Assembly (NCBI GenBank): GCA_049322955.1
Contig: JBMOPU010000012.1
Location: 83,581 to 147,580, forward strand
Source of the DNA: Patescibacteria group bacterium
Lineage (GTDB): Bacteria; Patescibacteriota; Microgenomatia; UBA10105; UBA927
Length of the DNA: 64,000 nt
Direction: 5' to 3'
In this document: one piece after another, positions 8,311-52,834 of the stretch
How the letters are laid out: every line of letters begins with the position of its first letter
Numbering within the stretch: position 1 is the stretch's first letter
Program-made: the position numbers and the translations under genes
The notes under the pieces: generated by a model
The model's database searches: none
Told to the model about the DNA's origin: nothing
What the model saw: the letters and a program-made list of their open reading frames with translations, nothing else

Positions 8311-9855
8311 ATGGATAACACTGTCTATCCGGGTGCCATAAATGAGGTGCATTACGGGCTTCAAAAACAGACCCCCAGTTATCAAAGTGAATTTCCTAAC
8401 GATCTTCCCTTTGACCCCGGAGCAACCTCAAGTCTTTTTGAACTCAACTATTTTCCCTCGACGGCGTCGAGGCTTCTACTTATGATTCCGCTGGTGTTAC
8501 TTCTTTTTCTGTTTTTTTTTCGTAAATATGCAAAAAACAGACAGGGGGAATTATTATTTCTTATCGCGATGTCGCTTGTTTTTTTTGGTCCGCTAAGGCT
8601 TCCTTCATTCCTGCAATTTAATACGACACTCGGGTTAGTCAAAGGCGTAGGACTGTTGCTCCTCTTATATACTTTTGTTGGAATTGTCGTGAGAAAAGTG
8701 CGCTTTGATATTTTTGCCATACCTTCGCTTGTAAGGGTGGGTTCTTATGTGCTGAGCCTGATGCTTTCCGTATTGGTTATGACGAACCCCAGTTTTTTCC
8801 TTGACGATTTCGGTATTGTCATCACCGGCTTGTTATTTTATTTTTTCGGTTATCTATATTTTTCATGGGAAATGGCAAAAACGCTACTCCTTATGTGGGC
8901 ACGACTCCTAGTTATCCCCAGTTTTATGGTGATATTCATTTTTTTGAATAACGCGATCGGTAAAGAACTGGTTTCTCTCCTGTTTCAGCGGTATGATAAC
9001 TTTGTTTTTTTGCATGATCTGAATAGAGGAAGAATTTTTTCCGTTATCGACTTTGAGTACTTTATTCCGTGCATCGCAATGTTCTTTGTTGTCGCCAAAA
9101 CCCAGAGAAAACACCTGGCCGGATATCAGTTTGCATTGCTTACCGCGCTTTCGTTTATCGCAATATTGCTGGTGAATTATCGGTATAGATTTCTTACCTA
9201 CATGTTGGGACTTGTTACGGTGTCATTTCTTCTTAAAAAATTTTCTCCGATCATACGAAAATATACGACGATTATTATCGTTTCACTCGGCACCCTCTAT
9301 TTCTTTTTCTCTTTAGCATTTTTTAGATCAACAATTCTCGATCGGTTTTTGGTAAGAAACTATGCGGAAGATCAGGTGAGTATTGAGCGGCGATTTACGA
9401 TGTACGGTCAGGCTTGGGAGCTCTTTACACAAAAACCGATTCTCGGAGTAGGCCTCGGAAACTATAAGGATAACGTTCAAATAGTTTATTCACGATTTGG
9501 AGGTAGAACGTACGAACCGTACTATAAAATTCTCCAAAACGTCTATGCATACCCGCATAATTGGTTTCTCACCGTACTTGCGGAAAACGGCATTGTCGGA
9601 TTTGCGGTATTGATGTGGATGCTTATCATGTTCGGGGTGATGGATTTCAGGCTATACAAAAAACTTCCCCTGGAAAACCACGCAATTTTTGTGATTATAA
9701 GCACGATCAGCTGGTTATATATCTTTGCAAATATGTTCACGATGATGCACGTATCACTTCCCATGGTAATCGTTTTCTGGGCGTGTCGCGGAATGATCGA
9801 ACGGATGTATCTTGATCTGTCGATACAGAAGAAACTTCGCTCAGCGCGAAAGTAA
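8311..9855 (+). CDS. O-antigen ligase/polymerase-family membrane protein (Wzy/WaaL-like).
   Basis: 514 aa polytopic protein with GVGLGNYKD...YAYPHNWFLTVLAENGIVGFAVLMWML, typical of the Wzy_C/O-antigen ligase domain. Confidence 0.7.
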   Translation: MDNTVYPGAINEVHYGLQKQTPSYQSEFPNDLPFDPGATSSLFELNYFPSTASRLLLMIPLVLLLFLFFFRKYAKNRQGELLFLIAMSLVFFGPLRLPSFLQFNTTLGLVKGVGLLLLLYTFVGIVVRKVRFDIFAIPSLVRVGSYVLSLMLSVLVMTNPSFFLDDFGIVITGLLFYFFGYLYFSWEMAKTLLLMWARLLVIPSFMVIFIFLNNAIGKELVSLLFQRYDNFVFLHDLNRGRIFSVIDFEYFIPCIAMFFVVAKTQRKHLAGYQFALLTALSFIAILLVNYRYRFLTYMLGLVTVSFLLKKFSPIIRKYTTIIIVSLGTLYFFFSLAFFRSTILDRFLVRNYAEDQVSIERRFTMYGQAWELFTQKPILGVGLGNYKDNVQIVYSRFGGRTYEPYYKILQNVYAYPHNWFLTVLAENGIVGFAVLMWMLIMFGVMDFRLYKKLPLENHAIFVIISTISWLYIFANMFTMMHVSLPMVIVFWACRGMIERMYLDLSIQKKLRSARK

Positions 9856-11124
9856 ATGCTTTTGTCGCACGAGGAAAATACTTCCCGTAGCTTCTATCAC
9901 CCAACCCGCCGATATCGCATACGCAAGGTGCGCGCCATTAATAGTATTCTGGAAAAGCAGAAATATAATGATCGTGATAGCCCTGAGTATCGTCAGCAAA
10001 AAATTCTGTCGGGTGTAACCGGCCATATCAAGAAGTTGCCTGTTTGGCCATACCAATAACGCATACACGGTATAGGCAATCAGGAGAATGCTCAATATCG
10101 ATTCCGCCTGCTGATACGATTGTCCAAAAAGCAAAATGATAAGTGGTGAACGGATACTAAAGAGGATGAGAGCGGGAACAAAAACTGCCGGTGCCAACCA
10201 GCCAAGGAGCTTCATATAGACGGGTGCAACCGCACGATTTTGCGCATGGCGCTCGCTGGCTATCGGAAGGAAGATGGCAAAAACCATCTGGGGGATAATA
10301 TGCAATAACGTCGCGATAGAAATCGCCGCTCCGTATAATCCGACCTCCTGAGCTCCCGCATGTGCCTGAAGCAATGAAAGTGCCAAAATGCCCGTTGCGG
10401 CGGTAATAATTTCGGAGGCGCCGACGGGAATCGCATACGGTAAAAGACCGGGCGCAAGTTGCGGCATATACCTTGTTTGCGGGAGTGTTTTTGCCATGAG
10501 AACGATATTCGTCACCGCACCCAAACCCGTCCCTACCGCATATCCTATTAAGGCGCCCGTAATGGCATGATCGAAGATTGCCATGCCGGCAATCGTCCCG
10601 ACGAATCGCAATACGATCTCAGAAGCTTCCGCGGCGTAGGCTAAACGAACCTTCAGTAATCCGAAAAAAGCGGCCCGCACAACGAGCGTAACCCCCGCTC
10701 CGATGATTGCCGACGAGAGGACGCGAAAATAACGGGCGGCATGGGGTGCTTGGATCGCATCGGCGAAAGGTGAGGAAAAAATAAAAAGCGCTATCCCTGC
10801 GGCCAACGACGTCACTGTCACCAGTGTCATCCCCGACGTGATTGCGGACGGTATTTTGTTGTCCTGATTATTCCCGCGGAAATAGGAGACAAATCTGGTT
10901 ATACTCATCGGGATGCCGAACGCGGCAAGGGTAACGAGTCCGGTCAGCGTGGAGGTGGCAAAATAAAAATCACCAAAACCTTCTAAGCCAATTCGTGCGA
11001 CATAGATTTTAAGAATAAAGCTCAGGAGTTTGGATATCCCGATGAGGAGCGAACCGAAGAGAATGCTCGAGATAAATGATAGTTCGAGCGTACCGAAAGA
11101 GAAAGCGAATCGATTTTTATCCAT
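9841..11124 (-). CDS. MOP-superfamily polysaccharide flippase (Wzx-like).
   Basis: 427 aa with about 12 predicted transmembrane segments; N-terminal region typical of the polysaccharide biosynthesis protein family. The 3' end overlaps the convergent Wzy-like gene by 15 nt. Confidence 0.7.
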   Translation of the reverse strand: MDKNRFAFSFGTLELSFISSILFGSLLIGISKLLSFILKIYVARIGLEGFGDFYFATSTLTGLVTLAAFGIPMSITRFVSYFRGNNQDNKIPSAITSGMTLVTVTSLAAGIALFIFSSPFADAIQAPHAARYFRVLSSAIIGAGVTLVVRAAFFGLLKVRLAYAAEASEIVLRFVGTIAGMAIFDHAITGALIGYAVGTGLGAVTNIVLMAKTLPQTRYMPQLAPGLLPYAIPVGASEIITAATGILALSLLQAHAGAQEVGLYGAAISIATLLHIIPQMVFAIFLPIASERHAQNRAVAPVYMKLLGWLAPAVFVPALILFSIRSPLIILLFGQSYQQAESILSILLIAYTVYALLVWPNRQLLDMAGYTRQNFLLTILRAITIIIFLLFQNTINGAHLAYAISAGWVIEATGSIFLVRQKHLLSR

Positions 11125-24716: not shown

Positions 24717-25361
24717 CTATTTTGATGGATCGGCAAACTGCATAACCGCATGCCGTAACAATCTGCGTTTTGACGCCGCAAGCTTGGGCATACCTGCAAG
24801 CTGTGTCCACCATTCCGTACTCGCCACCGCTTCGGCATTTGCCGCGAGACGCCGGGATTGCGGGAGAGTAAGTTGTTTTTTGGAATATTTCAACCATTTC
24901 TTTGCTTCCGTATATCCCTGTTCGACAAGAATATTTTCCTGAAATAGCTGATCCAATATATCCGCATCTTTTACCACTTTTGCCGCAAGCGACTTTTGGG
25001 CAAGAAAGGTATGATAGTGCGTAAGAAAGATACTACGGATAGTTGGCGGCAACGGATGGATGATATCGGTAAAGGCGTCGGTTTCCGCCTTTGTTTGATA
25101 CCGCTTATGCACGAAATTGGCATCACCAACCCGTGATTCCGCAATATCATGAATGAGCGCCATGAGGCTTACCTCCTGCAAATTCGCTCCGACCTCTTCC
25201 GCAAGCAGTAAGGCGATCATTGTGACATTGTATGAGTGGTCGGCTATGGATCCCATGTCGACGTTGAATGTTTGGTAAGAACTTCTTCTGATACGCTGGA
25301 GTGAACGAATTTCATTGATAAAGTTCACAACGCCGTTATCTTTTTTGAATGCTTTTTTCAT
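24717..25361 (-). CDS. HD-domain phosphohydrolase (YfbR-like 5'-deoxynucleotidase family).
   Basis: Has ADHSYNVTMIALLLAEE...LIHDIAESRVGD (H...HD...D). It overlaps the 3' end of the upstream QueC-like gene. Confidence 0.7.
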   Translation of the reverse strand: MKKAFKKDNGVVNFINEIRSLQRIRRSSYQTFNVDMGSIADHSYNVTMIALLLAEEVGANLQEVSLMALIHDIAESRVGDANFVHKRYQTKAETDAFTDIIHPLPPTIRSIFLTHYHTFLAQKSLAAKVVKDADILDQLFQENILVEQGYTEAKKWLKYSKKQLTLPQSRRLAANAEAVASTEWWTQLAGMPKLAASKRRLLRHAVMQFADPSK

Positions 25362-26301
25362 ACGAGTGTTGCAGGGCAACGGTTATTCTTCTGGTGGCGT
25401 TGTGTATTTTACTTTGGACCATTCCCATCGGCAAGTCTGTCCAATAGACCGTGTGATCGCATATTCCCGCCCGTTCGTACGCCTCTTTTCTTGTCCGACA
25501 TCCGTCACATCTCCCGCAATGGTACACCCCTCCCCAGTAACAACTCCATGTTTTTTCAAGCGGCATGCCATAATGATTCGCCCATTGGATAAGCGTTTCT
25601 TTTTCCCAAAAATATCCGCACTCTCTTTCCAGCGCGAGTGAGGCGATCTGCCATGACGAATCGTTGGTAAGTACGATAGTATTCATGGTCACCGAACGAA
25701 GCGCGGTGAATGTTTCATACGCCATACCGACCCCGTCCTTGGCGATAAAACTGTTAAATACGGTACGTATCCTTACTCCCCGGGTTAACTCCAGGTATCG
25801 GGCATATTGGACCGCATACCCGTTCAATAGCGATGAGTACATCGGGATCCCGTGTCGTTGAAGCGTTGTAGTATTGAAAATAGCGTCCGCAACGTCCGTA
25901 ATTCTCCATCGGATTTCCCGTGGCGGTATCGGTGCATTGATGAGTATCGGCTGATGATACTGCGAAGGGTATTGCTTCTGGAAAAAATCGGTAAAAAAGT
26001 AAAACGATCGAAGCTCCTTCGCAACGCGTCGATGTCCTCTTTTTATATATAACGGGTAAATATGCAATCCGTATTTTCTCATAAGAATGTCGCTAGCGAC
26101 CGTGCTGTCCAGACCGCCGGAAGAGAGCATGATAACCGGCGTGTTGGGTCGGGGCATGCGGAATATATATCCGCGTGTTTTCAATAAAAACGATTCGATA
26201 CTTGCGACCGCCGGCATGTTTTCCAGCGGGCGTTTTTGTAAAAGCATTGTGATGGTATTTTTCTGTTTTCGGGGAAGGATATAAGCGGTCTGCTTCTTCA
26301 T
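25336..26301 (-). CDS. QueC/ExsB-family PP-loop ATP pyrophosphatase with an N-terminal extension. Either an N-acetyl-sugar amidotransferase (WbpG/PseA-like) or a 7-cyano-7-deazaguanine synthase homolog.
   Basis: Has VIMLSSGGLDSTV (SGGxDS) and a C-terminal CYWGGVYHCGRCDGCRTRK (Cx7CxxCxxC, a QueC-type Zn motif). 321 aa. Confidence 0.65.
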   Translation of the reverse strand: MKKQTAYILPRKQKNTITMLLQKRPLENMPAVASIESFLLKTRGYIFRMPRPNTPVIMLSSGGLDSTVASDILMRKYGLHIYPLYIKRGHRRVAKELRSFYFFTDFFQKQYPSQYHQPILINAPIPPREIRWRITDVADAIFNTTTLQRHGIPMYSSLLNGYAVQYARYLELTRGVRIRTVFNSFIAKDGVGMAYETFTALRSVTMNTIVLTNDSSWQIASLALERECGYFWEKETLIQWANHYGMPLEKTWSCYWGGVYHCGRCDGCRTRKEAYERAGICDHTVYWTDLPMGMVQSKIHNATRRITVALQHSYEKSIQKR

Positions 26302-28746: not shown

Positions 28747-30870
28747 ATGGTGGCTCCTGAGGCACTACATATACCGGAGAAAAGCATACACGAAGCGTTA
28801 ATAAACGACGCGAGACGCCCCAAGTTGGTCGAGACACTCCCCGATTGGATGCAACGAGATACCCACGTACGATTCGGTGACCATGACATTGAACTGGAAA
28901 CAAACAGACTCCCGCGCATCGAAGGCGTCATGGGGGTTGTTAACCTCCTGCGGAAAGGCCAAGCGGAACTGAACCGGCCCTCAGGAGCCGTTACGCACGA
29001 GACGGCACAAGACAAGGAAGCTGGTGTGTTGCTTATCAAAAGCATTCTTGAAATAGCCGGGCTTGCGGCGGGTAGTGCCGCTATGAAAAAGGGTCGGGGC
29101 AAAAACGCCCTGCTTTTTTTGGGAGGGCTTGGGCTATTTGCCGGAGGCGGCATCGGGCTCACGATGGATTTATCGGGCTGTGCCTCTGCGATAGCGACCG
29201 AAGTGCCCCCGGGCACGCCGACCGCGCTTCCTGCGACGGAAATGCCCCCACAAGTTACCGTAACGCCGCTCAGCAACGAGGTTGTGGTGGGAACGCCTTC
29301 TTCCGCACCCGAGACCCCCGCTCCCATCCAAGGGGCATCATATCCTACCGAGGTATCGGTTCTTGAATCGCCGCTTGTGTATAGTTACGGAGGCGAGGCG
29401 GGACGCCAAAACATGAACGAATATACCCGGCAATTATTTGACCGTTATGTTGCGGAAATGAGTCGCTCCGGGTTCCTTACGGGTACCACCGTTGACCAGC
29501 TCTATCGATCCTTTGACCAGGGATACGATTTTAAACTTTTCACTACGGATCAGGGGCTTACCTGGTTAGTGCAAAGCAAATCTGATGGGAGCTTCTTGGT
29601 GCCAAAAGATCTGGACGGACAAATTTTTCGTGATTTACAACTTCCGTATAATTACCTGTTTGACTCAGGAGTAGCCGTTGAGGTTGGGCTTGATAACTTT
29701 AATTTCCAACGGTTTCAGGCAAACAAAGTAGGGTTTGTCGGCGCATGGCCGGTGCTTGTCACGGTTGACGGACAAGGTGTTCCGGTGAGTTGGGTGAACA
29801 TGGAACAGGGTGGTGCCGCAACCCCGATTACGGTAGCCTCTACAGTAGAGGCACCTACCCATGCATCGACCGATGTCCCCGACTCCCGTGTCGCCCTTAC
29901 GGTGGGAGCCGAGACGTTTCGAGTAACCACCGACGTTCGGTATTCGGAGTCGATCACCGATGTCAACATCGATCCTGCAAAGGCACAAAAAATCGGTGAA
30001 GTATTGGTCTATACCGATGCCGCAGGACGACTACTCTGGAATGAGCACCTGCAGGCATGGGTGCCGGAGTTTGGAACCAGTATGGACTATAAAACTCCCG
30101 AAACCGCACCAGTAGTACCGTTTGATGCGTATTATGACGGATCGAAGCCTGATGCCAGTACGTATATACCAAGTTCAGCCGCTTTGAGTGATATGTTGTA
30201 TATAGCCGAACACCCAGACCTGATTTCTCCTGATGCGTCATATCCCTACTATAGAGTGGCACTCTTCGGCAATGATAAAGCGAGGATAGGCTACGAAATT
30301 GTTCTTACTGGACCAAATCAATATCTTATTAGTAACGAAAACAAGACGGAGGTAACAAACAAAAAGCCGTTACCGTTTAATTATTTTGGTGTTCAGCAAA
30401 CAAAAGATAAAGACGGCAACATAATTTACGTTATAAAAAAGGCTAACTGGAATCCGATGCCGACAAATGAGCGAAATATCCTTGTGACTAATATGGGATT
30501 TGATAAGTCTGCATATGATGAATGGTTTAAATATCCATTAATTATGAGATACATTGAAGCCGATTCCTCAGTGACTGGTGGTGAGCTTGTGCCTCTTTTT
30601 CTTTCACCTGACGGACAGTTTCAGGAAACGAATCCGAATCTTTTTTATCTTGAAACTCAGCCGGCGAATCCTCATGTGGCCGCACTTGTGAGTAAAGATC
30701 TGACTGATATTTTTAGTCAGGAGGTCCAGACCAGTATTGATCTCCTGTATCCGCAGATAAATAAGCCTTTTGACGAAAAAACGAACCCAGGAAGCTATCT
30801 CATAGGAGTCTTACCGTCTGGGTTAACAAATATGATTCACTATACAGGAGTCCAGACGTTTTATCCCTAA
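28747..30870 (+). CDS. Large cell-surface protein, no recognisable family. The internal ATG at 29083 gives a perfect lipoprotein signal peptide (MKKGRGKNALLFLGGLGLFAGGGIGLTMDLSGC). The C-terminal ~190 aa are compositionally distinct.
   Basis: One long ORF of 707 aa. Hydrophobic stretch plus lipobox L-S-G-C at residues 113-145. Pro/Thr-rich linker. The 3' 570 nt are conspicuously AT-rich compared with the rest of the gene. Confidence 0.6.
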   Translation: MVAPEALHIPEKSIHEALINDARRPKLVETLPDWMQRDTHVRFGDHDIELETNRLPRIEGVMGVVNLLRKGQAELNRPSGAVTHETAQDKEAGVLLIKSILEIAGLAAGSAAMKKGRGKNALLFLGGLGLFAGGGIGLTMDLSGCASAIATEVPPGTPTALPATEMPPQVTVTPLSNEVVVGTPSSAPETPAPIQGASYPTEVSVLESPLVYSYGGEAGRQNMNEYTRQLFDRYVAEMSRSGFLTGTTVDQLYRSFDQGYDFKLFTTDQGLTWLVQSKSDGSFLVPKDLDGQIFRDLQLPYNYLFDSGVAVEVGLDNFNFQRFQANKVGFVGAWPVLVTVDGQGVPVSWVNMEQGGAATPITVASTVEAPTHASTDVPDSRVALTVGAETFRVTTDVRYSESITDVNIDPAKAQKIGEVLVYTDAAGRLLWNEHLQAWVPEFGTSMDYKTPETAPVVPFDAYYDGSKPDASTYIPSSAALSDMLYIAEHPDLISPDASYPYYRVALFGNDKARIGYEIVLTGPNQYLISNENKTEVTNKKPLPFNYFGVQQTKDKDGNIIYVIKKANWNPMPTNERNILVTNMGFDKSAYDEWFKYPLIMRYIEADSSVTGGELVPLFLSPDGQFQETNPNLFYLETQPANPHVAALVSKDLTDIFSQEVQTSIDLLYPQINKPFDEKTNPGSYLIGVLPSGLTNMIHYTGVQTFYP

Positions 30871-30941
30871 AAGCATAAAGAGAGCCTCCCCTGCCCTTAG
30901 TCTAATTGCATCTTCGTTCGGCTTTTGTTACAGTTTTCTTA

Positions 30942-32552
30942 ATGAGGAAGTTATTGTTTTTTATCGTATTGCTTTTCCTCTTTGTGCCGTTCGCTTCTGT
31001 ATCCGCGCAATATGTCACCCCTACGCAGGGTATCACCCCCACCGCTTGTCAACCGAGAACTTGTGATCAGCCTCCACCCAGTAATTGTAGTACTCTTCCA
31101 AATACAACATGGGGATCATTCCCTGTCTGTAATCATGGTGCTGACGGGTGTGGAGCGGTGTGGAGTTGTACGCAGACAACGGGTTGTACGGACGATGCCT
31201 CTTGGTCAGATTGGTCAGGATGTGCACCGGGAATAGAAGGAGAAACGAGGTACTGTATTAACTCAGCCTGTTGTGGTAATGCCGCCGAAGCACGTCTTTG
31301 TGATCCCAGTCCGACGGGACCCGGAGGACCGGGAGGAAACCCAACTGATCCGCCCGGGGTACCAACGGCCACACCCAACACTCCGCAGATCGGTGATATT
31401 CAGGCTCGAGCCGTTCAAGTAGATCCCGCCGATACGTCGTGTGCCGCCATCCGGGCAATTCCCACGACCGACGGCGAAGTGAACGGCGCGGTGCATCAGT
31501 TCACTCCCTCATCCGCTAGCCAACCGGCCGCCCAAACACAAACAGGTGCAAATTACGTAACCTTTGCCAATGTTGCGGCAGGGACCTACACGATAGATCC
31601 CAGTCCCCCAAGCGCGGATTGGGCATACGTACGGGCTTGCTCCAGAAACCTTGACAATGGTACCAATGCCGAAGGACTTTCACGCAACCTGCCCAATGCC
31701 GCGGTGCTCCGATGGGATATCGGATACACTTTAGGAACCGCGTGGGTGCAAGCTCAGGGAGGTGACGTCTATAGTTCGGGAACCATCCGTTCCTATCTTC
31801 CGTCGGTGACGCCAAGAGTATTTATCACCGACGGGACGGGCGGCTATCCCGGCATCATGACGTACGGCACAAGCTTTGATTTTGACAGCGATCCGTATGA
31901 AACGGGAGCGACTATCGTATCTGCCGACAACTGGCAGGTCAACGCAAGCCGTGCGAGCGTCAATTACTATGACTATTTTTACCGACGGTTCGGTGCCCCG
32001 ACGACTCCGACAACCGCCGCTCCGTTTGATAACCTCACCGCGGTTACGCAACCCGCGTCAAACTGTACGGCATCGACCTGTACTCCCTACTATGTCGTCG
32101 GAGATATGACGACCAGCGGCGCCTGGTCGGTGGGTGCCGATGAGCGGATAGTAATTCTTGTGAACGGTAATTTAACTATCGGCGGACGAATCAATATTAC
32201 GGGTAACGGCTTTATCGCATTCATCGTCAACGGGACAATCACGGTTTCGGATACCGTGGGTACGACGGCCGCTTCCACAACCCCCGTTGTCGAGGGCATT
32301 TATATCGCGACAACCGAAACTCAAACCGGGAGCATCAATACGGGCGAAAGTTTAGCGGCGGGAACTGCCCGATTTGTCGGAAAGGGCATGTTCGTCTCAA
32401 ACGGCTTCCTTCTTCAACGGGATCTACAGGGTTTTGGCTCGGGAAATACCGCAAATGCCGCGGAGTTATTCGTATATAATCCTCAGCTCTTGCTTACGAT
32501 GCCCGACAGTATGAAGGAGTTATCCGTCACCTGGCAGGAGGTATCACCGTAA
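30942..32552 (+). CDS. Secreted protein with a Sec signal peptide, an N-terminal Cys-rich module, a Pro/Gly linker, and a beta-helix-like C-terminal domain; no recognisable family.
   Basis: MRKLLFFIVLLFLFVPFASVSA then QYV. There are 14 Cys in about 90 aa. Linker PSPTGPGGPGGNPTDPPGVPTATPNTPQ. Repetitive VILVNGNLTIGGRINITGNGFIAFIVNGTITVSD. Confidence 0.6.
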   Translation: MRKLLFFIVLLFLFVPFASVSAQYVTPTQGITPTACQPRTCDQPPPSNCSTLPNTTWGSFPVCNHGADGCGAVWSCTQTTGCTDDASWSDWSGCAPGIEGETRYCINSACCGNAAEARLCDPSPTGPGGPGGNPTDPPGVPTATPNTPQIGDIQARAVQVDPADTSCAAIRAIPTTDGEVNGAVHQFTPSSASQPAAQTQTGANYVTFANVAAGTYTIDPSPPSADWAYVRACSRNLDNGTNAEGLSRNLPNAAVLRWDIGYTLGTAWVQAQGGDVYSSGTIRSYLPSVTPRVFITDGTGGYPGIMTYGTSFDFDSDPYETGATIVSADNWQVNASRASVNYYDYFYRRFGAPTTPTTAAPFDNLTAVTQPASNCTASTCTPYYVVGDMTTSGAWSVGADERIVILVNGNLTIGGRINITGNGFIAFIVNGTITVSDTVGTTAASTTPVVEGIYIATTETQTGSINTGESLAAGTARFVGKGMFVSNGFLLQRDLQGFGSGNTANAAELFVYNPQLLLTMPDSMKELSVTWQEVSP

Positions 32553-32571
32553 TTTTGATACAATAAGGGGC

Positions 32572-33969
32572 ATGACCTTCGAACAGCTTCGGTTGAAGCA
32601 CCCACGACTCATTTATAAGCGATACAACGTAACCAAATCCGATGCGGCGATTACGATAGAACATGAATTTCTGCTTGAGCCTGATATACCGTTTCGCGCA
32701 TCCACTACCATTCCCCATACGGGTGAGTTTCACGAGGAGGCGTTTGCCCCCTATGCGTTCCATTTAGGGCTGATTGAAGCGGTAAGCTATTGGAAAACGG
32801 CATGCCCCCGTGAATTTGTAGTAGAAGCGGGATATCTTGACGCTACGCAACTGCGGTTTTGGTACGATCTTTTCATCCATGGGTTGGGCGAGTTTTTCTA
32901 TCGAAATGCCATAGACTTCACCGCTCCCGAATTTCTTACCATTCGTACTACGGGTGAAGCGTTGCCTCCGAGCATTCCGTTTTCCCCCGCAGATATCGCC
33001 TCAACGGATCTGGTACTCGTCGGCGGCGGCAAGGATACTGCAGTGACGTTGGGAATGTTAAAAAATAGCGATAGAACAATCCAAACCATGATTGTTAATC
33101 CGACTGACGCGGCACGAAAATCCGTTGCTATCGCCCACTTCTCCTCCCCTCTTATCGTGAGGCGGGTAATGGATCCGCAACTTATGATCTTAAATAAGTC
33201 GGGGTATTTAAACGGGCATACCCCATTTTCCGCCTATCTTGCATTTCTTGGTATAGCGGTTGCATTTCTCCATAGAAATACTTCGGTGATTGTCTCCAAC
33301 GAAAGAAGTGCAAACGAAGGAAACGTTGTCTATAAGGGAATGGAAATAAATCATCAATACTCCAAAAGTTTCCGCTTTGAAACGCTGTTTCGCCGGTATA
33401 TTGCGGATGTATTTCCCGCGGCGGCTAACTACTTTAGCATGCTTCGTCCGTTAAACGATATTCAGATCGGGTTACTCTTTGCAAGGCTTCCGGAGTTTTT
33501 TCCCACTATCAGGAGTTGCAACGCCGGAAGTAAAAAAGGTATTTGGTGCGGGAAGTGCTCCAAATGTGCCTTCACCTACCTTGTCCTTTCTCCGTTTATC
33601 GCCGAAGCGGATCTTCTTCGCATATTCGGGAGTGATTATTTTCATGATCCCGATATCATCCAATATGTCCGTGAGCTCGTCGGGTTAACCCCGGTGAAAC
33701 CCTTTGAATGTGTGGGCACCCGGGATGAGGCAAAACTCTCGTTGCTTCTTGCGATTTCCCGGTATAAAAAAGAATCACGGGAAATACCCGAGGGCTTGCT
33801 TACGATAAAAAGTGATCTCGGTCTTACCGAAGAAGATACCTTGTTTCTCAAGGAACGGGTATTTGATGCGTGGGGTGATACCTTTAATCTCCCGCCGGAG
33901 CATATGAGTCTGCTTCGACTTACTTGGGAGAGAGCGCGAGAAAACTACGAGAAAACCGCACAACCATGA
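32572..33969 (+). CDS. Hypothetical protein with a PP-loop-like motif and a Cys cluster. Candidate MurL-like UDP-MurNAc-L-Ala-L-Glu epimerase, based on synteny with murD.
   Basis: 465 aa with LVLVGGGKDTAV (an AANH/PP-loop-like variant) and CNAGSKKGIWCGKCSKC. Its stop overlaps the murD start as ATGA. Confidence 0.35.
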   Translation: MTFEQLRLKHPRLIYKRYNVTKSDAAITIEHEFLLEPDIPFRASTTIPHTGEFHEEAFAPYAFHLGLIEAVSYWKTACPREFVVEAGYLDATQLRFWYDLFIHGLGEFFYRNAIDFTAPEFLTIRTTGEALPPSIPFSPADIASTDLVLVGGGKDTAVTLGMLKNSDRTIQTMIVNPTDAARKSVAIAHFSSPLIVRRVMDPQLMILNKSGYLNGHTPFSAYLAFLGIAVAFLHRNTSVIVSNERSANEGNVVYKGMEINHQYSKSFRFETLFRRYIADVFPAAANYFSMLRPLNDIQIGLLFARLPEFFPTIRSCNAGSKKGIWCGKCSKCAFTYLVLSPFIAEADLLRIFGSDYFHDPDIIQYVRELVGLTPVKPFECVGTRDEAKLSLLLAISRYKKESREIPEGLLTIKSDLGLTEEDTLFLKERVFDAWGDTFNLPPEHMSLLRLTWERARENYEKTAQP

Positions 33970-35333
33970 ACGAAATACACGGCACATCAGCACTCATTGT
34001 CGGATTCGGCCGGGAAGGTAAAAGCGTGTTGGCATGGCTCAATACGCACTATCCGAACCTTCGTATCGGAGTTGCCGATCGGACATTTGCACCCGACCAT
34101 ATGTCAGGAAGCACAAAGGATGGGGTGACGGTGTATAACGGAGAAGGATACCTTTCGCATTTGGCTGAGTATGACACGGTTATTCGAAGCCCGGGCGTAT
34201 CCCCGTATCTTCCCGAGTTTATTGCATATAAGAAGGGACCCGGTCATCTGACGAGCGCAACTAATATTTTCTTTTCGAAAGTCAAAGGGATTACGGTGGG
34301 AATAACCGGTACCAAGGGGAAAAGTACCACGTCAAGTCTTATCGCACACCTTTTGAAATTTCACTATACCGATGTCCGCCTCGTCGGGAATATCGGTATC
34401 CCCATGTTGGATTCCCTCGATACCGCTACATCAAAAACGGTGTTTGTCATGGAGCTTTCGAGTCATCAGCTCTATGATTGCCGGTATAGCCCGCAGGTGG
34501 CGGTGATGTTGGGAATCGTATCAGAACATCTGGATTACTATCCGGATCTCATAAGCTATGCGCATGCGAAAGCAAATATCATAGCGCATCAGACAAGCGA
34601 TGGGTTGTTAATTTATAATCCGGCTCATACCATCCTTCGTACGCTTGCCGCCTCCCATCGGGGAAAGAAAATTACGTATGGTTTGGAGAAGGCCGACGAA
34701 CACCACGTCACGATAAAAGATGGGATAATCACCGTGAATCAAAAAGGACGATTGGTATCGGTGATACCGATGACACAAGTTCCCCTTCTCGGAAATCAGG
34801 AGAATATTCTCGCCGCCGTCTCCGCGGCTTCGGTACTGGGTGTATCACCCGAAGTGATTGCGCAGGCAATTACCCCGTTTCAATCACTTCCCCACCGTCT
34901 CGAATACGTCGGGGAATTTTTGGGCATTCGATTCTATAACGACTCGCTCGCAACGATTCCCCAAGCGACGATTCATGCGCTTTCCGCACTCGGTCCCGAT
35001 GCAAGCACCCTTATTGCCGGAGGCTACGATCGACATCTGGATTTTGCCGAACTCGGAGCATATCTGCGGAGTCATCCGATAAAAACGCTTATTCTTTTTC
35101 CCGACACCGGCGAAAAAATATGGGAGGCAATCGGCCAAGTACAGGCCGGGGCAATTACCAGATTTACCGTGAACACGATGAAAGAAGCGGTACAACTGGC
35201 ATATGACAACACTCCGCAAGGAGCAATTTGTCTGCTCTCACCGGGAAGTGCAAGCTATAATCTATTTCGTGATTATGCCGATCGGGGAGATCAGTTTAAG
35301 CACTGGGTAAGGGCTTTTGGTGGTGCGCAGTGA
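33966..35333 (+). CDS. murD: UDP-N-acetylmuramoyl-L-alanine--D/L-glutamate ligase (MurD family).
   Basis: Has LIVGFGREGKSV...GITGTKGKSTTSSLIAHLL (Mur ligase P-loop) and the C-terminal Mur ligase domain. Confidence 0.85.
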   Translation: MNEIHGTSALIVGFGREGKSVLAWLNTHYPNLRIGVADRTFAPDHMSGSTKDGVTVYNGEGYLSHLAEYDTVIRSPGVSPYLPEFIAYKKGPGHLTSATNIFFSKVKGITVGITGTKGKSTTSSLIAHLLKFHYTDVRLVGNIGIPMLDSLDTATSKTVFVMELSSHQLYDCRYSPQVAVMLGIVSEHLDYYPDLISYAHAKANIIAHQTSDGLLIYNPAHTILRTLAASHRGKKITYGLEKADEHHVTIKDGIITVNQKGRLVSVIPMTQVPLLGNQENILAAVSAASVLGVSPEVIAQAITPFQSLPHRLEYVGEFLGIRFYNDSLATIPQATIHALSALGPDASTLIAGGYDRHLDFAELGAYLRSHPIKTLILFPDTGEKIWEAIGQVQAGAITRFTVNTMKEAVQLAYDNTPQGAICLLSPGSASYNLFRDYADRGDQFKHWVRAFGGAQ

Positions 35334-35386
35334 CCCTCCTTTTATCGTGACTTGTAGAAAACTCGGTAATTCGGTATACTATTGCT

Positions 35387-35524
35387 ATGCCAAAGCGAAC
35401 CTACCAACCAAAGAAACTCAAGCGCAAACGAGTCCACGGATTCCGTGAACGGATGAAAACCGTGAAGGGCAGACTGGTATTGAAGCGTCGCCGATCTATC
35501 GGGCGAAAAAAGCTTACTGTCTAA
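35387..35524 (+). CDS. rpmH: 50S ribosomal protein L34.
   Basis: [45 protein letters not shown] (45 aa), not in the ORF track because it is under 60 aa. It sits upstream of rnpA in the canonical arrangement. Confidence 0.95.
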
Positions 35525-35531
35525 TTATTTC

Positions 35532-35864
35532 ATGCTTCCACAATCTCTGCGTGTCCCCTCTCGGCTCATTTTGCCATTGCTCCGTCGCGGCAAAAAGATC
35601 AGAGAAGGTTCGCTTGAACTGGTCTTTGAACGAACATCGGCAAAAAGCGCATTTGCCTGTATCGTCCCCGTGAAAGTTGATAAGCGTGCAACCAAGCGAA
35701 ACCGCATGAAGCGTCTTGTTCGGGAAGCGGTAGCCTTGCTGTTACCGGAAATAACCGTTGACTTCATCGGAATTATTGTCGTCCGGGGGAAGATCCCCGA
35801 CATGCAACAAGAGGTTGTTTCCCTTGTTCGCAACGCCCTGATAAAGGCGGGGTTGCATCAATAA
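35532..35864 (+). CDS. rnpA: RNase P protein component.
   Basis: 110 aa basic protein, ...[15 protein letters not shown]..., located between rpmH and yidD. Confidence 0.85.
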
Positions 35865-35865
35865 T

Positions 35866-36111
35866 ATGAAAACCACACTCCTCGCCGCCATACGCTGGTA
35901 TCAAAAATATCTTTCTCCCGATACCGGAGTATTCCGTTCGCTCTGGCTTGTTGGAGCGGGGTGTCGGTATCAACCGACATGTAGTGAGTATATGTATCAA
36001 GCGGTGAATCGCTATGGTATAATCTACGGATTGTGGTTAGGGGTGCGAAGGATCATGCGCTGTCACCCCTTAGCCCGCGGAGGATTCGATCCTGTTCCTT
36101 CGTCCCGATAA
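35866..36111 (+). CDS. yidD: Membrane protein insertion efficiency factor YidD.
   Basis: Has [11 protein letters not shown]...[19 protein letters not shown]...[17 protein letters not shown]. Confidence 0.9.
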
Positions 36112-36115
36112 TATT

Positions 36116-36919
36116 ATGACAAATCCTACCCTGTGGAATCAGTTGCTCGTTTGGCCCATCATCAACCTTCTCATGGTGTTTTACAAGTTTTTTGAATGGC
36201 TCAATATTCCAGGACCGTTGGGATTTGCGGTGATTGCTCTGACCGTTGCCATCCGATTTATTCTGTATCCCCTCATGGGAGCACAGATGAAATCCGCAAA
36301 AAAGATGCAGGCACTTAAGCCTCATTTGGATGCGTTAAGCGCAAAGCACAAGGACGATAAAAAAGCACTGCAACAGGCGCAAATGGATTTATATAAAGCG
36401 CATAACATAAATCCCGCCGCAGGATGCCTGCCGCTTCTCGTGCAAATGCCCGTACTGATCGCGCTCTACAACGTGTTTTATCAGGTTTTGCAAAACGGAG
36501 ATCTTGCAAAGCTTGTCAATGATCTTAATCAAGTGGCGTACACGTCCTCTCTCAAAATTGGTACATTGGATCTTTCGTTTTTCGGAACAAATCTCGGGAT
36601 TAAACCCAGTCAATGGCAGACGCACGGATATTGGTTGCTTCTTATTCCCGTTATTACCGCGGCGCTTCAATGGTGGCAAAGCAAATTGGTGATGCCTCCC
36701 GCACCGGCGCCGGGATTGGTGAAGCATGCAACCGGGAAAGATGCGGAAGAAAAAAAACCGGAAGATACCGCGCTTGAGATGCAGAGACAAATGGCAATGA
36801 TAACACCGATTATGTTTGGTATGTTCGCCTACCAGTTTCCATTGGGATTGGCGCTCTACTGGAACGTTTTCGGGCTTTTTGGTATTATTCAGCAGCTTCA
36901 AATAAATAAGGAGGCATAA
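36116..36919 (+). CDS. yidC: Membrane protein insertase YidC (short form).
   Basis: 267 aa with conserved YidC/Oxa1 core helices (AGCLPLLVQMPVLIALY...FPLGLALYW). Confidence 0.85.
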   Translation: MTNPTLWNQLLVWPIINLLMVFYKFFEWLNIPGPLGFAVIALTVAIRFILYPLMGAQMKSAKKMQALKPHLDALSAKHKDDKKALQQAQMDLYKAHNINPAAGCLPLLVQMPVLIALYNVFYQVLQNGDLAKLVNDLNQVAYTSSLKIGTLDLSFFGTNLGIKPSQWQTHGYWLLLIPVITAALQWWQSKLVMPPAPAPGLVKHATGKDAEEKKPEDTALEMQRQMAMITPIMFGMFAYQFPLGLALYWNVFGLFGIIQQLQINKEA

Positions 36920-37385: not shown

Positions 37386-38729
37386 ATGGCACTGCATAGA
37401 AGATTATTTTTTCTTCTTATTCTCTTTTTACCCACGCAACTCGGAATACATTTTTGGCCGGAATGGACCCACGTGTTGGGACGAAGAGTCGATTATCTTT
37501 CGCCCACCATTTATTTTACCGACGTGCTGTTGCTTGCCGTGTTTTTCACGTGGATGGTCTCTTTGAGGCAAAAGAAATTTTTGCGAAAACTAACCATCCC
37601 ATTCCCTTTCTCTCTAACTGCAGTAGTGCTCGTGGGTGTTACTGTCGGAAACATTTCTGTTGCGGCAAATACGCCGCTGGTGATATATAAGTGGATAAAA
37701 TTTTATGAATACCTTTTGCTTGGATGGTATATTATTGCGACGAACGTGCGGATGAAAGATATTGTCCTCCCGCTTGCCATTGCAGTCCTTTACTCATCAC
37801 TCATTGCATTGACCCAGTTTATTTTGCAACGATCCGTCGGCGGCGTGCTATGGTTTTTGGGTGAACGCTCATTTATGATTGACACTCCGGGAATTGCCAG
37901 GATTGCGCTTTGCACCCGGTATAGCACCGATTGTCCGCTACTGCTTCGGTCGTACGCGACCTTCCCCCACCCCAATGTATTTGCTGGATTTGTTGCGGTA
38001 GCGCTCCCCTATTTTTTACTTCGTATCCTGCGTACCGACTTATGGTTGGGTCCCTTTTGGCTTGCAATAGCGGCATTCATGGTGAGTGTTGCGGGATTGC
38101 TGACCTCATTTAGCCGGAGTGCATGGGCCGTGAGCGTCATCATGGTATTGGGCACGTGGCTTATCGTAAAAATATTGTCGCGACACAAAAAAATTGCGAC
38201 TTTCCATCCGCTTACCGTGGCGGCCTTTTTTAGTGCGATTTGTTTCATCGTATTGGTTATGCTACGGCTTCCGGCAAGATCCGACGAATCTCTCGTGATT
38301 CGGCAGCAATTACATCAAACCGCAATCCATATGTGGACTACAACACCGTTTTTCGGAGTAGGACTCGGGAATTTTCTTATAGAGCTCCCCTCCTTTGCTC
38401 CCTACAGAGCAGGAAATTTTTTACAGCCGGTGCACAATATCTATGTGTTATTCATGACTGAAGCCGGCATCGCCGGATGGGGTGTATTGCTTATTCTGGG
38501 GGGCATGTGTTTCTTACACAGGAGACGCATAGGGTATGCTGTCATGCACAATCTCGATGACGTGACACTCCCCCTTCTTTCCTTATGCGGCGTCCTCCTT
38601 TTGGGTGTGGTTGACCACTATCCGATAACCCTTCAACAAGGGCAATTGCTTTCTTGTGTCTTTGCCTCCGTTATCGCGGGACAATTTATATCCAGTAGCA
38701 ACGCTAAAAGATCTCATTTTCTGGACTAA
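37386..38729 (+). CDS. O-antigen ligase-family membrane protein (Wzy_C domain).
   Basis: Has TPFFGVGLGNFLIELPSFAPYRAGNFLQPVHNIYVLFMTEAGIAGWGVLLIL. Polytopic. Confidence 0.7.
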   Translation: MALHRRLFFLLILFLPTQLGIHFWPEWTHVLGRRVDYLSPTIYFTDVLLLAVFFTWMVSLRQKKFLRKLTIPFPFSLTAVVLVGVTVGNISVAANTPLVIYKWIKFYEYLLLGWYIIATNVRMKDIVLPLAIAVLYSSLIALTQFILQRSVGGVLWFLGERSFMIDTPGIARIALCTRYSTDCPLLLRSYATFPHPNVFAGFVAVALPYFLLRILRTDLWLGPFWLAIAAFMVSVAGLLTSFSRSAWAVSVIMVLGTWLIVKILSRHKKIATFHPLTVAAFFSAICFIVLVMLRLPARSDESLVIRQQLHQTAIHMWTTTPFFGVGLGNFLIELPSFAPYRAGNFLQPVHNIYVLFMTEAGIAGWGVLLILGGMCFLHRRRIGYAVMHNLDDVTLPLLSLCGVLLLGVVDHYPITLQQGQLLSCVFASVIAGQFISSSNAKRSHFLD

Positions 38730-38842
38730 CGGCATCGGCTTACCACTACACGTGCGTATGCATCGCGTCCGGACATGCGAGTGTCGACACATTTTCATAG
38801 CGTGAGAGGAAGAAACGCACCGGTATCTGTTACAATGAGCCC

Positions 38843-40141
38843 ATGTTGAAAGATTGGTTCCCCGCCGGTTCACTGCGACGAATAATCGCCGGTAATACCG
38901 TAAGTCAACTGATCGGACGCATGGTGAGCTCGGTCACGATTGTCATCGTAAGCGTGCTCATTGCCCAACGATTCGGCCCCGAAGGATATGGGGATTTTGT
39001 AAAAATTACCACCTACGTAGGATTTTTTTATCTTCTTGCCGATTTCGGGTTGAATGCCGTGTATTTACAGCAAACAGCCTCACAAGGAATGAAGACCAAA
39101 CAGATAGCATCCGCACCCTGGCGCACACTTCTCGGGCTCCGCTTAGTTATTAGTTCGACGCTTGTTCTTGTGGCGCTTGCCGTCCTTTCCCTCTTTCCTC
39201 ACACCGTTGCCTACGGGTATACGCCGCTTGTGCGGTTCGGCATCGTATTGCTTGTGCCCGTGATTATTGCCCAGGCGATAACAACCACAACCAATGCCCT
39301 TTTCCAAAAAATGCTTCGGTACGATTACTCCACAAAAGCGCAGAATATCGGATCATTTTTTTTGGTTGCCGTTGCCCTCGTGCTTGCTACGACAACGGCT
39401 ACCGCAGGTCCTTTGCTGGGTGTCGCCGCAGTTTTTGCCGGAAGCAGTGTTACCGCAATTGTTGCGCTCTTTTTGGTTTCTCGCCATCTCGGCTCGATAA
39501 CTCCCCTTTTTCGTACGGACACGTTTATGTCGATACTTCGCCAGGGGGCACCTTTGGGGTTTGCCCTGGTGTTTAATTTAATCTATTTTCACTCCGACAG
39601 CGTAATTCTCACCCTCACCCGTTCCACCGAAGAGGTCGGCATATACGGGCTTGCCTACAAAGTATTTGAGTTGCCGTTGGTGCTTCCGATTTTTTTTATG
39701 AATGCCGTCTATCCGTTGCTTCTTGAAAAACAACAAACCGATAATAGCGGTCAAAAAAAAATTTTTGAGCGCTCCTTGCAATTCTTGCTGGGAAGTTCTC
39801 TGCTCCTTGCAAGTGGTCTTTGGATCACCGCGCCGCTTGTCACATTTGTTCGTCCTGATTTTGCCCCCAGCGTTTTGCCACTTCGAGTATTAAGTATGGG
39901 ACTCCCGATTTTTTTTGTTTCCGCTCTTTTTATGTGGTTTATTATCGCGCAGAAAAAGCAATTGTCCCTCGTTGTTATTCATGGTGTCGGCATGATCGGG
40001 AGCATATTACTCAATATATTGCTGGTTCCATCGTACGGGTATATGGCGGCGGCTTGGGTAACAATCGCGTCTGAATTTTTTGTGCTCGCGGCAACGGCCT
40101 TTCTTGTCCTTCCGCGCATATATGCGAGGGAGGGGAAATAA
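38843..40141 (+). CDS. MOP-superfamily flippase (Wzx/MurJ-like).
   Basis: 432 aa with about 12 transmembrane segments; N-terminal region typical of the polysaccharide biosynthesis protein/MurJ family. Confidence 0.6.
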   Translation: MLKDWFPAGSLRRIIAGNTVSQLIGRMVSSVTIVIVSVLIAQRFGPEGYGDFVKITTYVGFFYLLADFGLNAVYLQQTASQGMKTKQIASAPWRTLLGLRLVISSTLVLVALAVLSLFPHTVAYGYTPLVRFGIVLLVPVIIAQAITTTTNALFQKMLRYDYSTKAQNIGSFFLVAVALVLATTTATAGPLLGVAAVFAGSSVTAIVALFLVSRHLGSITPLFRTDTFMSILRQGAPLGFALVFNLIYFHSDSVILTLTRSTEEVGIYGLAYKVFELPLVLPIFFMNAVYPLLLEKQQTDNSGQKKIFERSLQFLLGSSLLLASGLWITAPLVTFVRPDFAPSVLPLRVLSMGLPIFFVSALFMWFIIAQKKQLSLVVIHGVGMIGSILLNILLVPSYGYMAAAWVTIASEFFVLAATAFLVLPRIYAREGK

Positions 40142-51973: not shown

Positions 51974-52834
51974 TTAGAGCTCTTCAAGCTTTACGCGTTC
52001 GGTGTGTTTATCCGAGATAAATTCGAGATATTTTTCGGTGGTTGAAAGTCGTTTATGTCCGACAAGCTTACTGATCGTCGTAAGCGCGGTTCCCGACATA
52101 AGGTGATGGGCGATAAAGGTGTGGCGGAGGTCGTTGACCTTCGCGTCCTCGATACCAGCCACTTTAAAATAACGGTCAATTGCCGTGCGGATGTTGCGAA
52201 TGAGAAGCGGACGTCCGGTTTTTGTGATGAAGAGAGAAGAAGATTTCGCCTCGGCATTTCGTGCTTTACGCCAATTATCAAGCGCTTCTTTTGCGGCACG
52301 GTTTAACGGAACGGTTCGTTCTTCATGCCCTTCCTGAGCGGCAATGTGAAGCTCGGAATCTTTAACATCGGAAACGGCTAAGTTCGCCAGTTCACCGATC
52401 CGGAGGCCCGTTTGCAAGAAAAGCTCGACGATGGCATACGTGCGGATGTCACCCCGGCATGCATCACGGAGGGCACGGTATTCAAGCTTCGAGAGAATGC
52501 GCGGCGGTTTCACCTCATATTTCGGGTGTTCGATATCAGTTGCGGGATCCTGGGTAATACTTCCTGACGTTTTTAAGAAACGGTAAAACGTCTTCATTGA
52601 GTTGATCTTCCGGGAGATTGATTTCGGTGTGTAGCTATCGGCCGCTAGTTTTTTTAGAAAGGCCTCGAGCTCCTCTTTGGTAACGGTGGTGATGTCTTTT
52701 TTGCCGACGTTCGTAAGAAACGCCACTAACTGCTCAATATCCTTGCTGTATGCTACGATAGTTGCGTGGGCCCGCTTCCGCGAGGACAGATATTCCACAA
52801 ATTGCTTGTGAGCCGATTTCAAATCAAGTGTCAT
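51974..52834 (-). CDS. Tyrosine site-specific recombinase (XerC/XerD-like).
   Basis: 286 aa with an N-terminal SAM-like core-binding domain and C-terminal catalytic residues (...RHTFIAHHLMSG...LVGHKRLSTTEKY). Confidence 0.8.
   Translation of the reverse strand: MTLDLKSAHKQFVEYLSSRKRAHATIVAYSKDIEQLVAFLTNVGKKDITTVTKEELEAFLKKLAADSYTPKSISRKINSMKTFYRFLKTSGSITQDPATDIEHPKYEVKPPRILSKLEYRALRDACRGDIRTYAIVELFLQTGLRIGELANLAVSDVKDSELHIAAQEGHEERTVPLNRAAKEALDNWRKARNAEAKSSSLFITKTGRPLLIRNIRTAIDRYFKVAGIEDAKVNDLRHTFIAHHLMSGTALTTISKLVGHKRLSTTEKYLEFISDKHTERVKLEEL

Follow-up and report, generated by a model that had tools for sequence, protein, structure and literature searches.

Peptidoglycan D-glutamate (D-Glu) can be supplied without a glutamate racemase by the MurD2/MurL pathway, which was discovered in Xanthomonas oryzae in 2017, as summarised in two reviews (PMC8788868, PMC5808125). 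In this pathway the ligase MurD2 is specific for L-glutamate (L-Glu), and the epimerase MurL works from L to D only, with one ATP consumed and AMP formed (PMC8788868, PMC5808125). Here we present a candidate murL-murD2 gene pair from a Patescibacteria group bacterium (assembly GCA_049322955.1). It lies in a stretch of 64,000 nucleotides (nt) of contig JBMOPU010000012.1 (positions 83,581 to 147,580, forward strand), which was analysed in its full length and is called the window; all positions given below are those of the window unless another locus is named. The pair consists of a gene for a protein of 465 amino acids (aa) and a murD homologue directly downstream of it. Homology of both proteins to the described system, MurD2-type residues in the ligase, a conserved pattern in which the two genes adjoin, overlap or are fused, and a QueC-like PP-loop core in the 465-aa protein led us to regard it as highly probable that the pair forms a functional MurL-MurD2 system, and with it a racemase-independent route to peptidoglycan D-Glu.

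The pathway itself is known already, and MurL models exist in both Pfam and NCBIfam; the locus in the window adds a Patescibacteria copy. Orthologues from Micromonospora and Salinispora were verified in vitro, and the published organisms with MurD2 and MurL were found to be without D-Glu-forming genes (PMC8788868). The published distribution comprises Xanthomonadales, a few Alphaproteobacteria and Micromonosporaceae, with low-similarity matches in cyanobacteria, a fungus and an amoeba, and Patescibacteria, Bacteroidales and Clostridia are absent from the distribution lists of the reviews, which describe MurL as a protein without known conserved domains (PMC8788868, PMC5808125). The pathway was considered to be confined to relatively few genera and was proposed as a narrow-spectrum antibiotic target (PMC8788868). 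In the open-access literature we found no paper describing MurL in bacteria of the CPR (candidate phyla radiation) or a QueC-like fold for MurL, and none that names MurL along with QueC.

The 465-residue protein, its partner ligase and their distribution

The open reading frame (ORF) of murL spans 32572..33969 on the plus strand and starts with ATG, immediately 5' of which the Shine-Dalgarno-like sequence AAGGGG was found. A word-indexed search returned at least 8000 database homologues of the protein, and when 1.84 billion cluster representatives (50% identity) were searched exhaustively with HMMER, 2561 representatives of the family reached E <= 1e-3, of which 1179 reached E <= 1e-30. As homologues number in the thousands, we concluded that the ORF is a real gene and not a chance reading frame. 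An initial annotation of this DNA had pointed out the ORF, two motifs in it, LVLVGGGKDTAV (aa 147-158, nt 33010-33045) and CNAGSKKGIWCGKCSKC (aa 316-332, nt 33517-33567), and an ATGA overlap with murD; all of these were found in the sequence. It had further proposed that the two genes are a MurL-MurD2 pair, a reading that gained support from the profile match, the Pfam domains, the ligase residues and the conserved linkage described in this section.

Comparison with a profile of characterised MurL, which the initial annotation had asked for, was positive. The NCBIfam model NF041275 ('MurL_Xanthmoales, UDP-N-acetyl-alpha-D-muramoyl-L-alanyl-L-glutamate epimerase', a model of Xanthomonadales) matched residues 55-392 of the protein to profile positions 54-391 of 447, with an E value of 4.8e-67 and 226 bits. 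An identical protein occurs on six public contigs, with the precomputed Pfam domains PF26299 MurL_N and PF26298 MurL_epimerase_C. The same two domains were present in 120 of 120 homologues among the matches listed, one of which is named as an epimerase by JGI. Our own scan of the ORF, for which a copy of Pfam without the MurL models was used, gave no significant family, and DUF6395, GATase_3 and QueC appeared below threshold only. A sequence search of the PDB with MurL gave no match even at an E value of 10. At NCBI the protein MFZ5534693.1, at least 90% identical to MurL, carries the label 'hypothetical protein'; this is likely due to the equivalog cut-off of 700 bits in the Xanthomonadales-specific model, and the entry is probably under-annotated.

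The murD2 ORF counted from its ATG encodes 455 aa, and the longest open frame reaches back to a TTG at 33924. At the junction of the two genes (...CAA CCA TGA ACG...) the murL stop codon TGA at 33967-33969 overlaps the murD2 ATG at 33966-33968, which we read as translational coupling of murL and murD2. The murD2 ATG is also used in gene calls on independent contigs with identical proteins. Residues of the ligase were mapped to E. coli MurD by MAFFT and by HMMER against PDB chains, and both mappings agreed (Table 1).

Four positions near the glutamate were compared in a review by Ogasawara and Dairi, in which D182/K348/A414/L416 of E. coli MurD correspond to E197/R358/P433/F435 of X. oryzae MurD2 (PMC8788868). 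The single mutants E197D and R358K of X. oryzae MurD2 were altered in stereospecificity and the double mutant E197D/R358K switched completely to D-Glu, while P433A and F435L kept the wild-type specificity for L-Glu; in addition, E. coli MurD K319T gained acceptance of L-Glu (PMC8788868). In the canonical MurDs of solved structure (E. coli, Thermotoga, Streptococcus agalactiae and the 7sir protein) residue 182 is Asp or Thr and residue 319 is Lys. The window ligase has both decisive MurD2 residues and no lysine at the K319 position, which supports a predicted preference for L-Glu. Its NCBI entry, MFZ5534694.1, is annotated as a D-glutamate ligase, and the substrate stereochemistry in this annotation is probably wrong.

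The distribution of MurL was investigated in one genome per GTDB species with the two MurL peptides KPF[ED]CVGT and NGHTPFSA[YL]. At least 594 species-level genomes with confirmed MurL relatives were found in many phyla, including metagenome-assembled genomes (MAGs) labelled as gut Bacteroidales and Lachnospiraceae. Linkage and MurD type were analysed in the best 80 of these relatives, which were fetched with their flanks and are all closer to the window MurL than the Xanthomonas protein is; the characterised X. oryzae proteins were compared through the NCBIfam profile and the residue numbers given in the review. The closest of the 80 is from a Candidatus Gottesmanbacteria MAG (59% identity). 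Deposited names among them are Curtissbacteria, Roizmanbacteria, Microgenomates, Paceibacterota, Nealsonbacteria and Saccharibacteria, and further Acidobacteria, Rokuibacteriota, Bdellovibrionota, a cyanobacterium, Bacteroidales, Lachnospiraceae and Clostridia. Some of these labels look unreliable. Five MAGs (L007, L012, L037, L055, L064) were deposited as 'uncultured Gammaproteobacteria', 'Enterobacteriaceae' or 'Pseudomonadales'; their MurLs are 39-52% identical to the window MurL and rank among the Patescibacteria matches, and the taxonomy of these co-assembly bins looks doubtful.

About 70 of the 80 loci have a MurD homologue as the next gene downstream of murL, on the same strand, and the murL stop codon often overlaps the predicted murD start, as called by a heuristic, by 4 nt (ATGA or GTGA). 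When 69 MurL-linked MurDs, that of the window included, were aligned with E. coli MurD, the Glu/Arg signature at the D182 and K348 positions was found in all except two (67/69; single positions in Table 1). At four loci MurL and a Mur ligase are encoded by one ORF (L023 5827-8487, L028 5947-8268, L082 5968-8691 and L085 5914-8700). Many family members are 800-1250 aa long, and Pfam confirmed fusions of MurL and Mur ligase in both orders (proteins P0142, P0147, P0159, P0225, P0250 and P0268). These natural fusions argue independently for a joint action of the two activities. In P0225 the domain fused upstream of MurL is of the PF01225 type, which we take to be the N-domain of MurC/E/F-type ligases and not of MurD, and P0250 has an additional C-terminal M20 peptidase domain.

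Fold, invariant residues and a candidate mechanism

Conservation of residues was measured across 81 MurLs of diverse phyla. In the PP-loop variant GGGKD(S/T) the residues G152, G153, K154 and D155 are conserved to 96-100%; the window MurL has Thr at the last position, where 95% of its relatives have Ser. Three further motifs and the cysteine cluster are listed in Table 1, and T217, N260, S264, E270, S315, N317, W325, K331, F378 and E386 are also invariant or nearly so.

The AlphaFold2 model of MurL, built with 75 homologues, reached a mean predicted local distance difference test (pLDDT) score of 94.8 and a predicted template modelling (pTM) score of 0.93. In this model an alpha/beta core extends from about residue 140 to about residue 340. 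Foldseek gave QatC and QueC for this core, and its best structural neighbours are QueC, Cap9 and QatC, all of them PP-loop ATP pyrophosphatases. With its Rossmann-like arrangement and a Gly-rich PP-loop after strand 1, the predicted core belongs to the PP-loop ATP pyrophosphatase (adenine nucleotide alpha-hydrolase) superfamily, a fold that is consistent with the formation of AMP. The initial annotation had called the protein PP-loop-like, and at the level of the modelled fold this description is correct. It had also described a Zn-ribbon-like cluster fused to the ATP-binding fold. The cysteines are indeed there, but instead of a separate fused ribbon they make up a QueC-type C-x9-C-x2-C-x2-C site within the PP-loop domain, and by analogy with QueC the site is probably a structural Zn site.

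Membership in the QueC family (PF06508) itself was considered and rejected by sequence; MurL resembles QueC in its fold and probably also in the activation of a carboxylate. The Pfam QueC match of MurL covers aa 314-333, aligned to profile positions 181-200 of 210, and scored 11.4 bits against a cut-off of 22; this region of the profile presumably holds the zinc-binding cysteines. When the MurL family was compared by hhalign with a QueC-like protein of the window, only the PP-loop aligned (to SSGGLDS), with a probability of 2.7%. The latter protein, of 321 aa, is encoded at 25336-26301 on the minus strand and has a precomputed PF06508 domain and a C-x8-C-x2-C-x2-C cluster. Typical QueC proteins are about 100 aa shorter. 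Its gene adjoins those of an HD-domain (YfbR-like) protein and an ABC transporter pair, and the protein may serve in preQ0 synthesis or be a QueC-like variant.

From the published reaction of MurL, the modelled fold and the conservation pattern we propose a mechanism with the following catalytic assignments. The MurD2-type ligase would add L-Glu to UDP-N-acetylmuramoyl-L-alanine at the expense of ATP, and MurL would then flip the added residue to the D form, again using ATP, to give the normal substrate of MurE. In MurL the GGGKD(S/T) loop would position ATP such that the alpha-carboxylate of the terminal Glu could attack the alpha-phosphate, yielding an acyl-adenylate and pyrophosphate, in the way that QueC-type enzymes activate a carboxylate. 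The C-alpha proton, more acidic once the carboxylate is activated, would be removed and returned from the opposite face. Candidates for this inversion are the invariant Cys380, His216 and His261, of which Cys380 may act as the general acid/base; an oxazolone intermediate would be an alternative route. Hydrolysis of the adenylate would release AMP and the D product, and the reaction would run one way because the L epimer is selectively adenylated. The ATGA overlap would allow the two enzymes to be made in matched amounts.

Compared with the reviews, the host phylum, the wide distribution with its fusions and the predicted QueC-like PP-loop core with a four-Cys site are new, and we consider these predictions moderately interesting. 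On balance we lean towards a broader view. In it, MurD2/MurL is a widespread and ancient D-Glu route, present in Microgenomates, other Patescibacteria, many MAGs labelled Bacteroidales, Clostridia/Lachnospiraceae, Acidobacteria and others and thus well beyond Xanthomonas, Stenotrophomonas and Micromonospora, and MurL derives from QueC as an adenylating enzyme of the PP-loop type, which has a Zn site and inverts its substrate with an invariant set of Cys and His residues. If the route is as widespread and ancient as that, many annotations of 'MurD, D-glutamate ligase' would be wrong on stereochemistry, and the pathway would not be a narrow-spectrum drug target. Because of the annotation gap, metabolic reconstructions of CPR genomes like this one would falsely report a missing source of D-Glu or assume the wrong substrate. 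Together with the four-Cys site, the QueC-like fold and the invariant residues Cys380, His216 and His261 would also provide a concrete framework for ATP-dependent one-way epimerisation.

Table 1. Features of the murL-murD2 locus, with residues at specificity positions in MurL-linked MurDs.
Feature	Position in window (nt)	Strand	Description
MurL N-terminal domain, aa 1-138	32572..32985	+	Meander of three strands and a long helix, followed by beta-alpha units
PP-loop variant GGGKDT, aa 151-156	33022..33039	+	First strand-helix turn of QueC-like domain; candidate ATP/pyrophosphate-binding loop
NGHTPFSA motif, aa 214-221	33211..33234	+	Invariant His216, candidate active-site residue; N214, G215, H216, P218 100%
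NHQYSK motif, aa 260-265	33349..33366	+	Invariant His261, Gln262, Lys265
Four-Cys cluster C316-x9-C326-x2-C329-x2-C332	33517..33567	+	All four Cys 100% conserved
KPFECVGT motif, aa 376-383	33697..33720	+	P377, C380 100%; K376, E379, V381, G382 at least 96%
ATGA stop/start overlap murL/murD2	33966..33969	+	Seen in the sequence; 4-nt overlap also in many unrelated lineages
MurD2-type ligase	33966..35333	+	TIGR01087 murD 329.7 bits (cut-off 211.95); Pfam MurD-like_N, Mur_ligase_M, Mur_ligase_C
MurD2 Glu187	34524..34526	+	E. coli D182, X. oryzae E197; VSEHLD vs TEDHMD
MurD2 Leu328	34947..34949	+	E. coli K319; NDSLAT vs NDSKAT
MurD2 Arg356	35031..35033	+	E. coli K348, X. oryzae R358; GGYDRHLDF vs GGDGKSADF
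E. coli D182 position			Glu in 67/69, Asp in 2/69 MurL-linked MurDs
E. coli K348 position			Arg in 69/69 MurL-linked MurDs
E. coli K319 position			Leu, Ile or Gln in 69/69, Lys in 0/69 MurL-linked MurDs
E. coli L416 position			Phe or Tyr in 66/69 MurL-linked MurDs
Secreted-looking protein, 707 aa	28747-30870	+	No Pfam match
Secreted-looking protein, 548 aa	30906-32552	+	No Pfam match; ends 19 nt before murL

Supply of D-Glu and alternative explanations

Several points weigh against the assignment of the pair to MurL and MurD2. The score of the 465-aa protein is well under the equivalog cut-off of NF041275, which was tuned to Xanthomonadales, and its MurL domains in Pfam are a precomputed assignment taken from the identical public protein. 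We consider that the low score marks divergence and not exclusion, since at the sequence level the homology is unambiguous; as the curated threshold was missed, the orthology is argued from homology together with synteny and the partner residues. The ligase has Ala429 and Tyr431 where X. oryzae MurD2 has Pro433 and Phe435 (E. coli A414 and L416). These two positions are not decisive, because the P433A and F435L mutants keep L-Glu specificity, and an aromatic residue, Tyr431, is retained at the L416-equivalent position. Arg at position 348 is also found in the D-Glu-using streptococcal MurD, the only one of the four PDB species to have it. The CPR members of the family are known as sequences, with their activity predicted from them, and the roles given to Cys380, His216 and His261 and to zinc binding are derived from conservation and the modelled fold. 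Finally, the scan for murI covered 64 kb, which is about 6% of a genome of roughly 1 Mb, and Ca. Saccharimonas, also a member of the CPR, has an experimentally active MurI according to a reference cited in PMC11974145. CPR bacteria are thus not uniform.

This coverage and the active MurI of another CPR lineage are what speaks for a first alternative, in which the pair is functional but redundant and the genome also has a gene for MurI (or for a D-amino-acid aminotransferase) and perhaps one for a canonical MurD. We consider this unlikely. A phmmer search with E. coli MurI gave no match in the six-frame ORFs of the window or in the flanks of the 80 related loci, which total about 0.9 Mb; these negatives are weak evidence. 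Pfam scans of 40 other window ORFs detected no Asp_Glu_race or Aminotran_4 domain, and the sole aminotransferase among the scanned ORFs is a DegT-type sugar aminotransferase. CPR genomes are small and seldom retain redundant pathways, which also counts against redundancy, as does the absence of D-Glu-forming genes from the published MurD2/MurL organisms (PMC8788868).

The score below the equivalog cut-off leaves room for a second alternative, in which the 465-aa protein is a MurL paralogue that uses ATP for a different reaction on the muropeptide precursor (amidation, for example, or some other modification of a carboxylate), and the ligase is an ordinary D-Glu-adding MurD, as NCBI labels it, fed by a racemase encoded elsewhere. 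Such a role would suit the PP-loop enzymes that are its neighbours in fold, as these commonly amidate or thiolate adenylated substrates, and the confinement of the murI scan to the window would be compatible with a racemase at another site. However, the family has the appearance of one orthologous group, in which all motifs are kept in 81 sequences from many phyla, and MurL is nearly always paired with a MurD of the Glu/Arg/non-Lys signature that mutagenesis has tied to L-Glu. The locus also has no glutaminase or sulfur-carrier partner. We regard the paralogue as very unlikely.

That the protein is instead a QueC-family enzyme of 7-deazaguanine/queuosine synthesis or of QatC/Cap9-like defence, with the adjacency to murD incidental, is hardly credible and effectively refuted by the synteny: its structural neighbours and the sub-threshold QueC match at the Cys cluster fit this idea, but that match is 20 residues long and below the cut-off, hhalign aligned the PP-loop only, the locus is without QatA, QatB, QatD or CdnD, a separate QueC-like gene is already present in the window, and adjacency or fusion to a Mur ligase is conserved across phyla.

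Gene surroundings and comparison with known systems

The gene order at the locus is two large secreted-looking proteins, murL, murD2, rpmH, rnpA, yidD, yidC and jag, followed by a Wzy_C protein and a polysaccharide flippase-like protein. The genes for the 707-aa and 548-aa proteins also precede murL on independent contigs, and the 548-aa protein is hydrophobic at its N-terminus and contains a region rich in Cys, Pro and Thr. With the MurDs of the window and of E. coli as queries, phmmer detected no other Mur ligase in the 64-kb window, and no classical dcw cluster was seen around the pair. Between murD2 and rnpA a 45-aa ORF (35387-35524, plus strand) resembles ribosomal protein L34 (rpmH), which has its classical place upstream of rnpA-yidD-yidC-jag. 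For promoter and terminator patterns in the region 30800-36200, the counts did not rise above those of shuffled sequence.

Genes for a Wzy_C (O-antigen ligase/polymerase-like) and a Polysacc_synt flippase-like protein occur together twice in the window, at 8311-11124 and at 37386-40141. Several GT4 glycosyltransferases are encoded in its first half, along with a DegT aminotransferase, an NDP-sugar epimerase and a nucleotidyltransferase; taken together, surface-polysaccharide genes make up a large share of the window. A tyrosine recombinase of the Phage_integrase family with an N-terminal SAM-like domain (51974-52834, minus strand) is flanked by genes for a class-I tRNA synthetase and a DivIC-like protein, and could be either XerC/D or the integrase of a mobile element.

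With Xanthomonas MurL the window protein shares about 340 homologous residues, the architecture of MurL_N and MurL_epimerase_C and an adjoining gene for a MurD2-type ligase. It differs in its divergence, 226 bits against the 700 of the cut-off, in the Thr in place of the usual Ser at the end of the PP-loop, in its host, a Patescibacteria/Microgenomates-like MAG with Gottesmanbacteria as closest named relatives, and in that the two genes adjoin rpmH-rnpA-yidD-yidC-jag. The ligase resembles X. oryzae MurD2 as a three-domain Mur ligase, encoded next to murL, with Glu and Arg at the D182 and K348 positions. In contrast to X. oryzae MurD2 it has Ala and Tyr for Pro433 and Phe435, and it passes the generic murD equivalog TIGR01087 and is annotated for D-Glu; its stereospecificity is a prediction.

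QueC activates a carboxylate with ATP first, and AMP is produced. MurL also yields AMP from ATP (PMC8788868, PMC5808125), and activation of a carboxylate is proposed for it here. A Gly-rich PP-loop stands at the same position in MurL as in QueC, Cap9 and QatC (aligned by hhalign, at 2.7% probability, with the QueC-like protein of the window), and the cysteine spacing of MurL differs by one residue from that of the QueC-like protein in the window. MurL differs from QueC by an additional N-terminal domain (aa 1-138) and by a helical C-terminal region with the invariant KPFECVGT, and its outcome would be stereo-inversion and hydrolysis, not formation of an amide or nitrile.

Compared with the canonical route through MurD and MurI, the window ligase is of the same family, with about 29% identity to E. 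coli MurD. It differs from the solved canonical MurDs at positions 182 and 319, and no murI was found in the 64-kb window. In the pathway proposed here the inversion would take place after ligation, on the nucleotide-peptide, and would cost one extra ATP.

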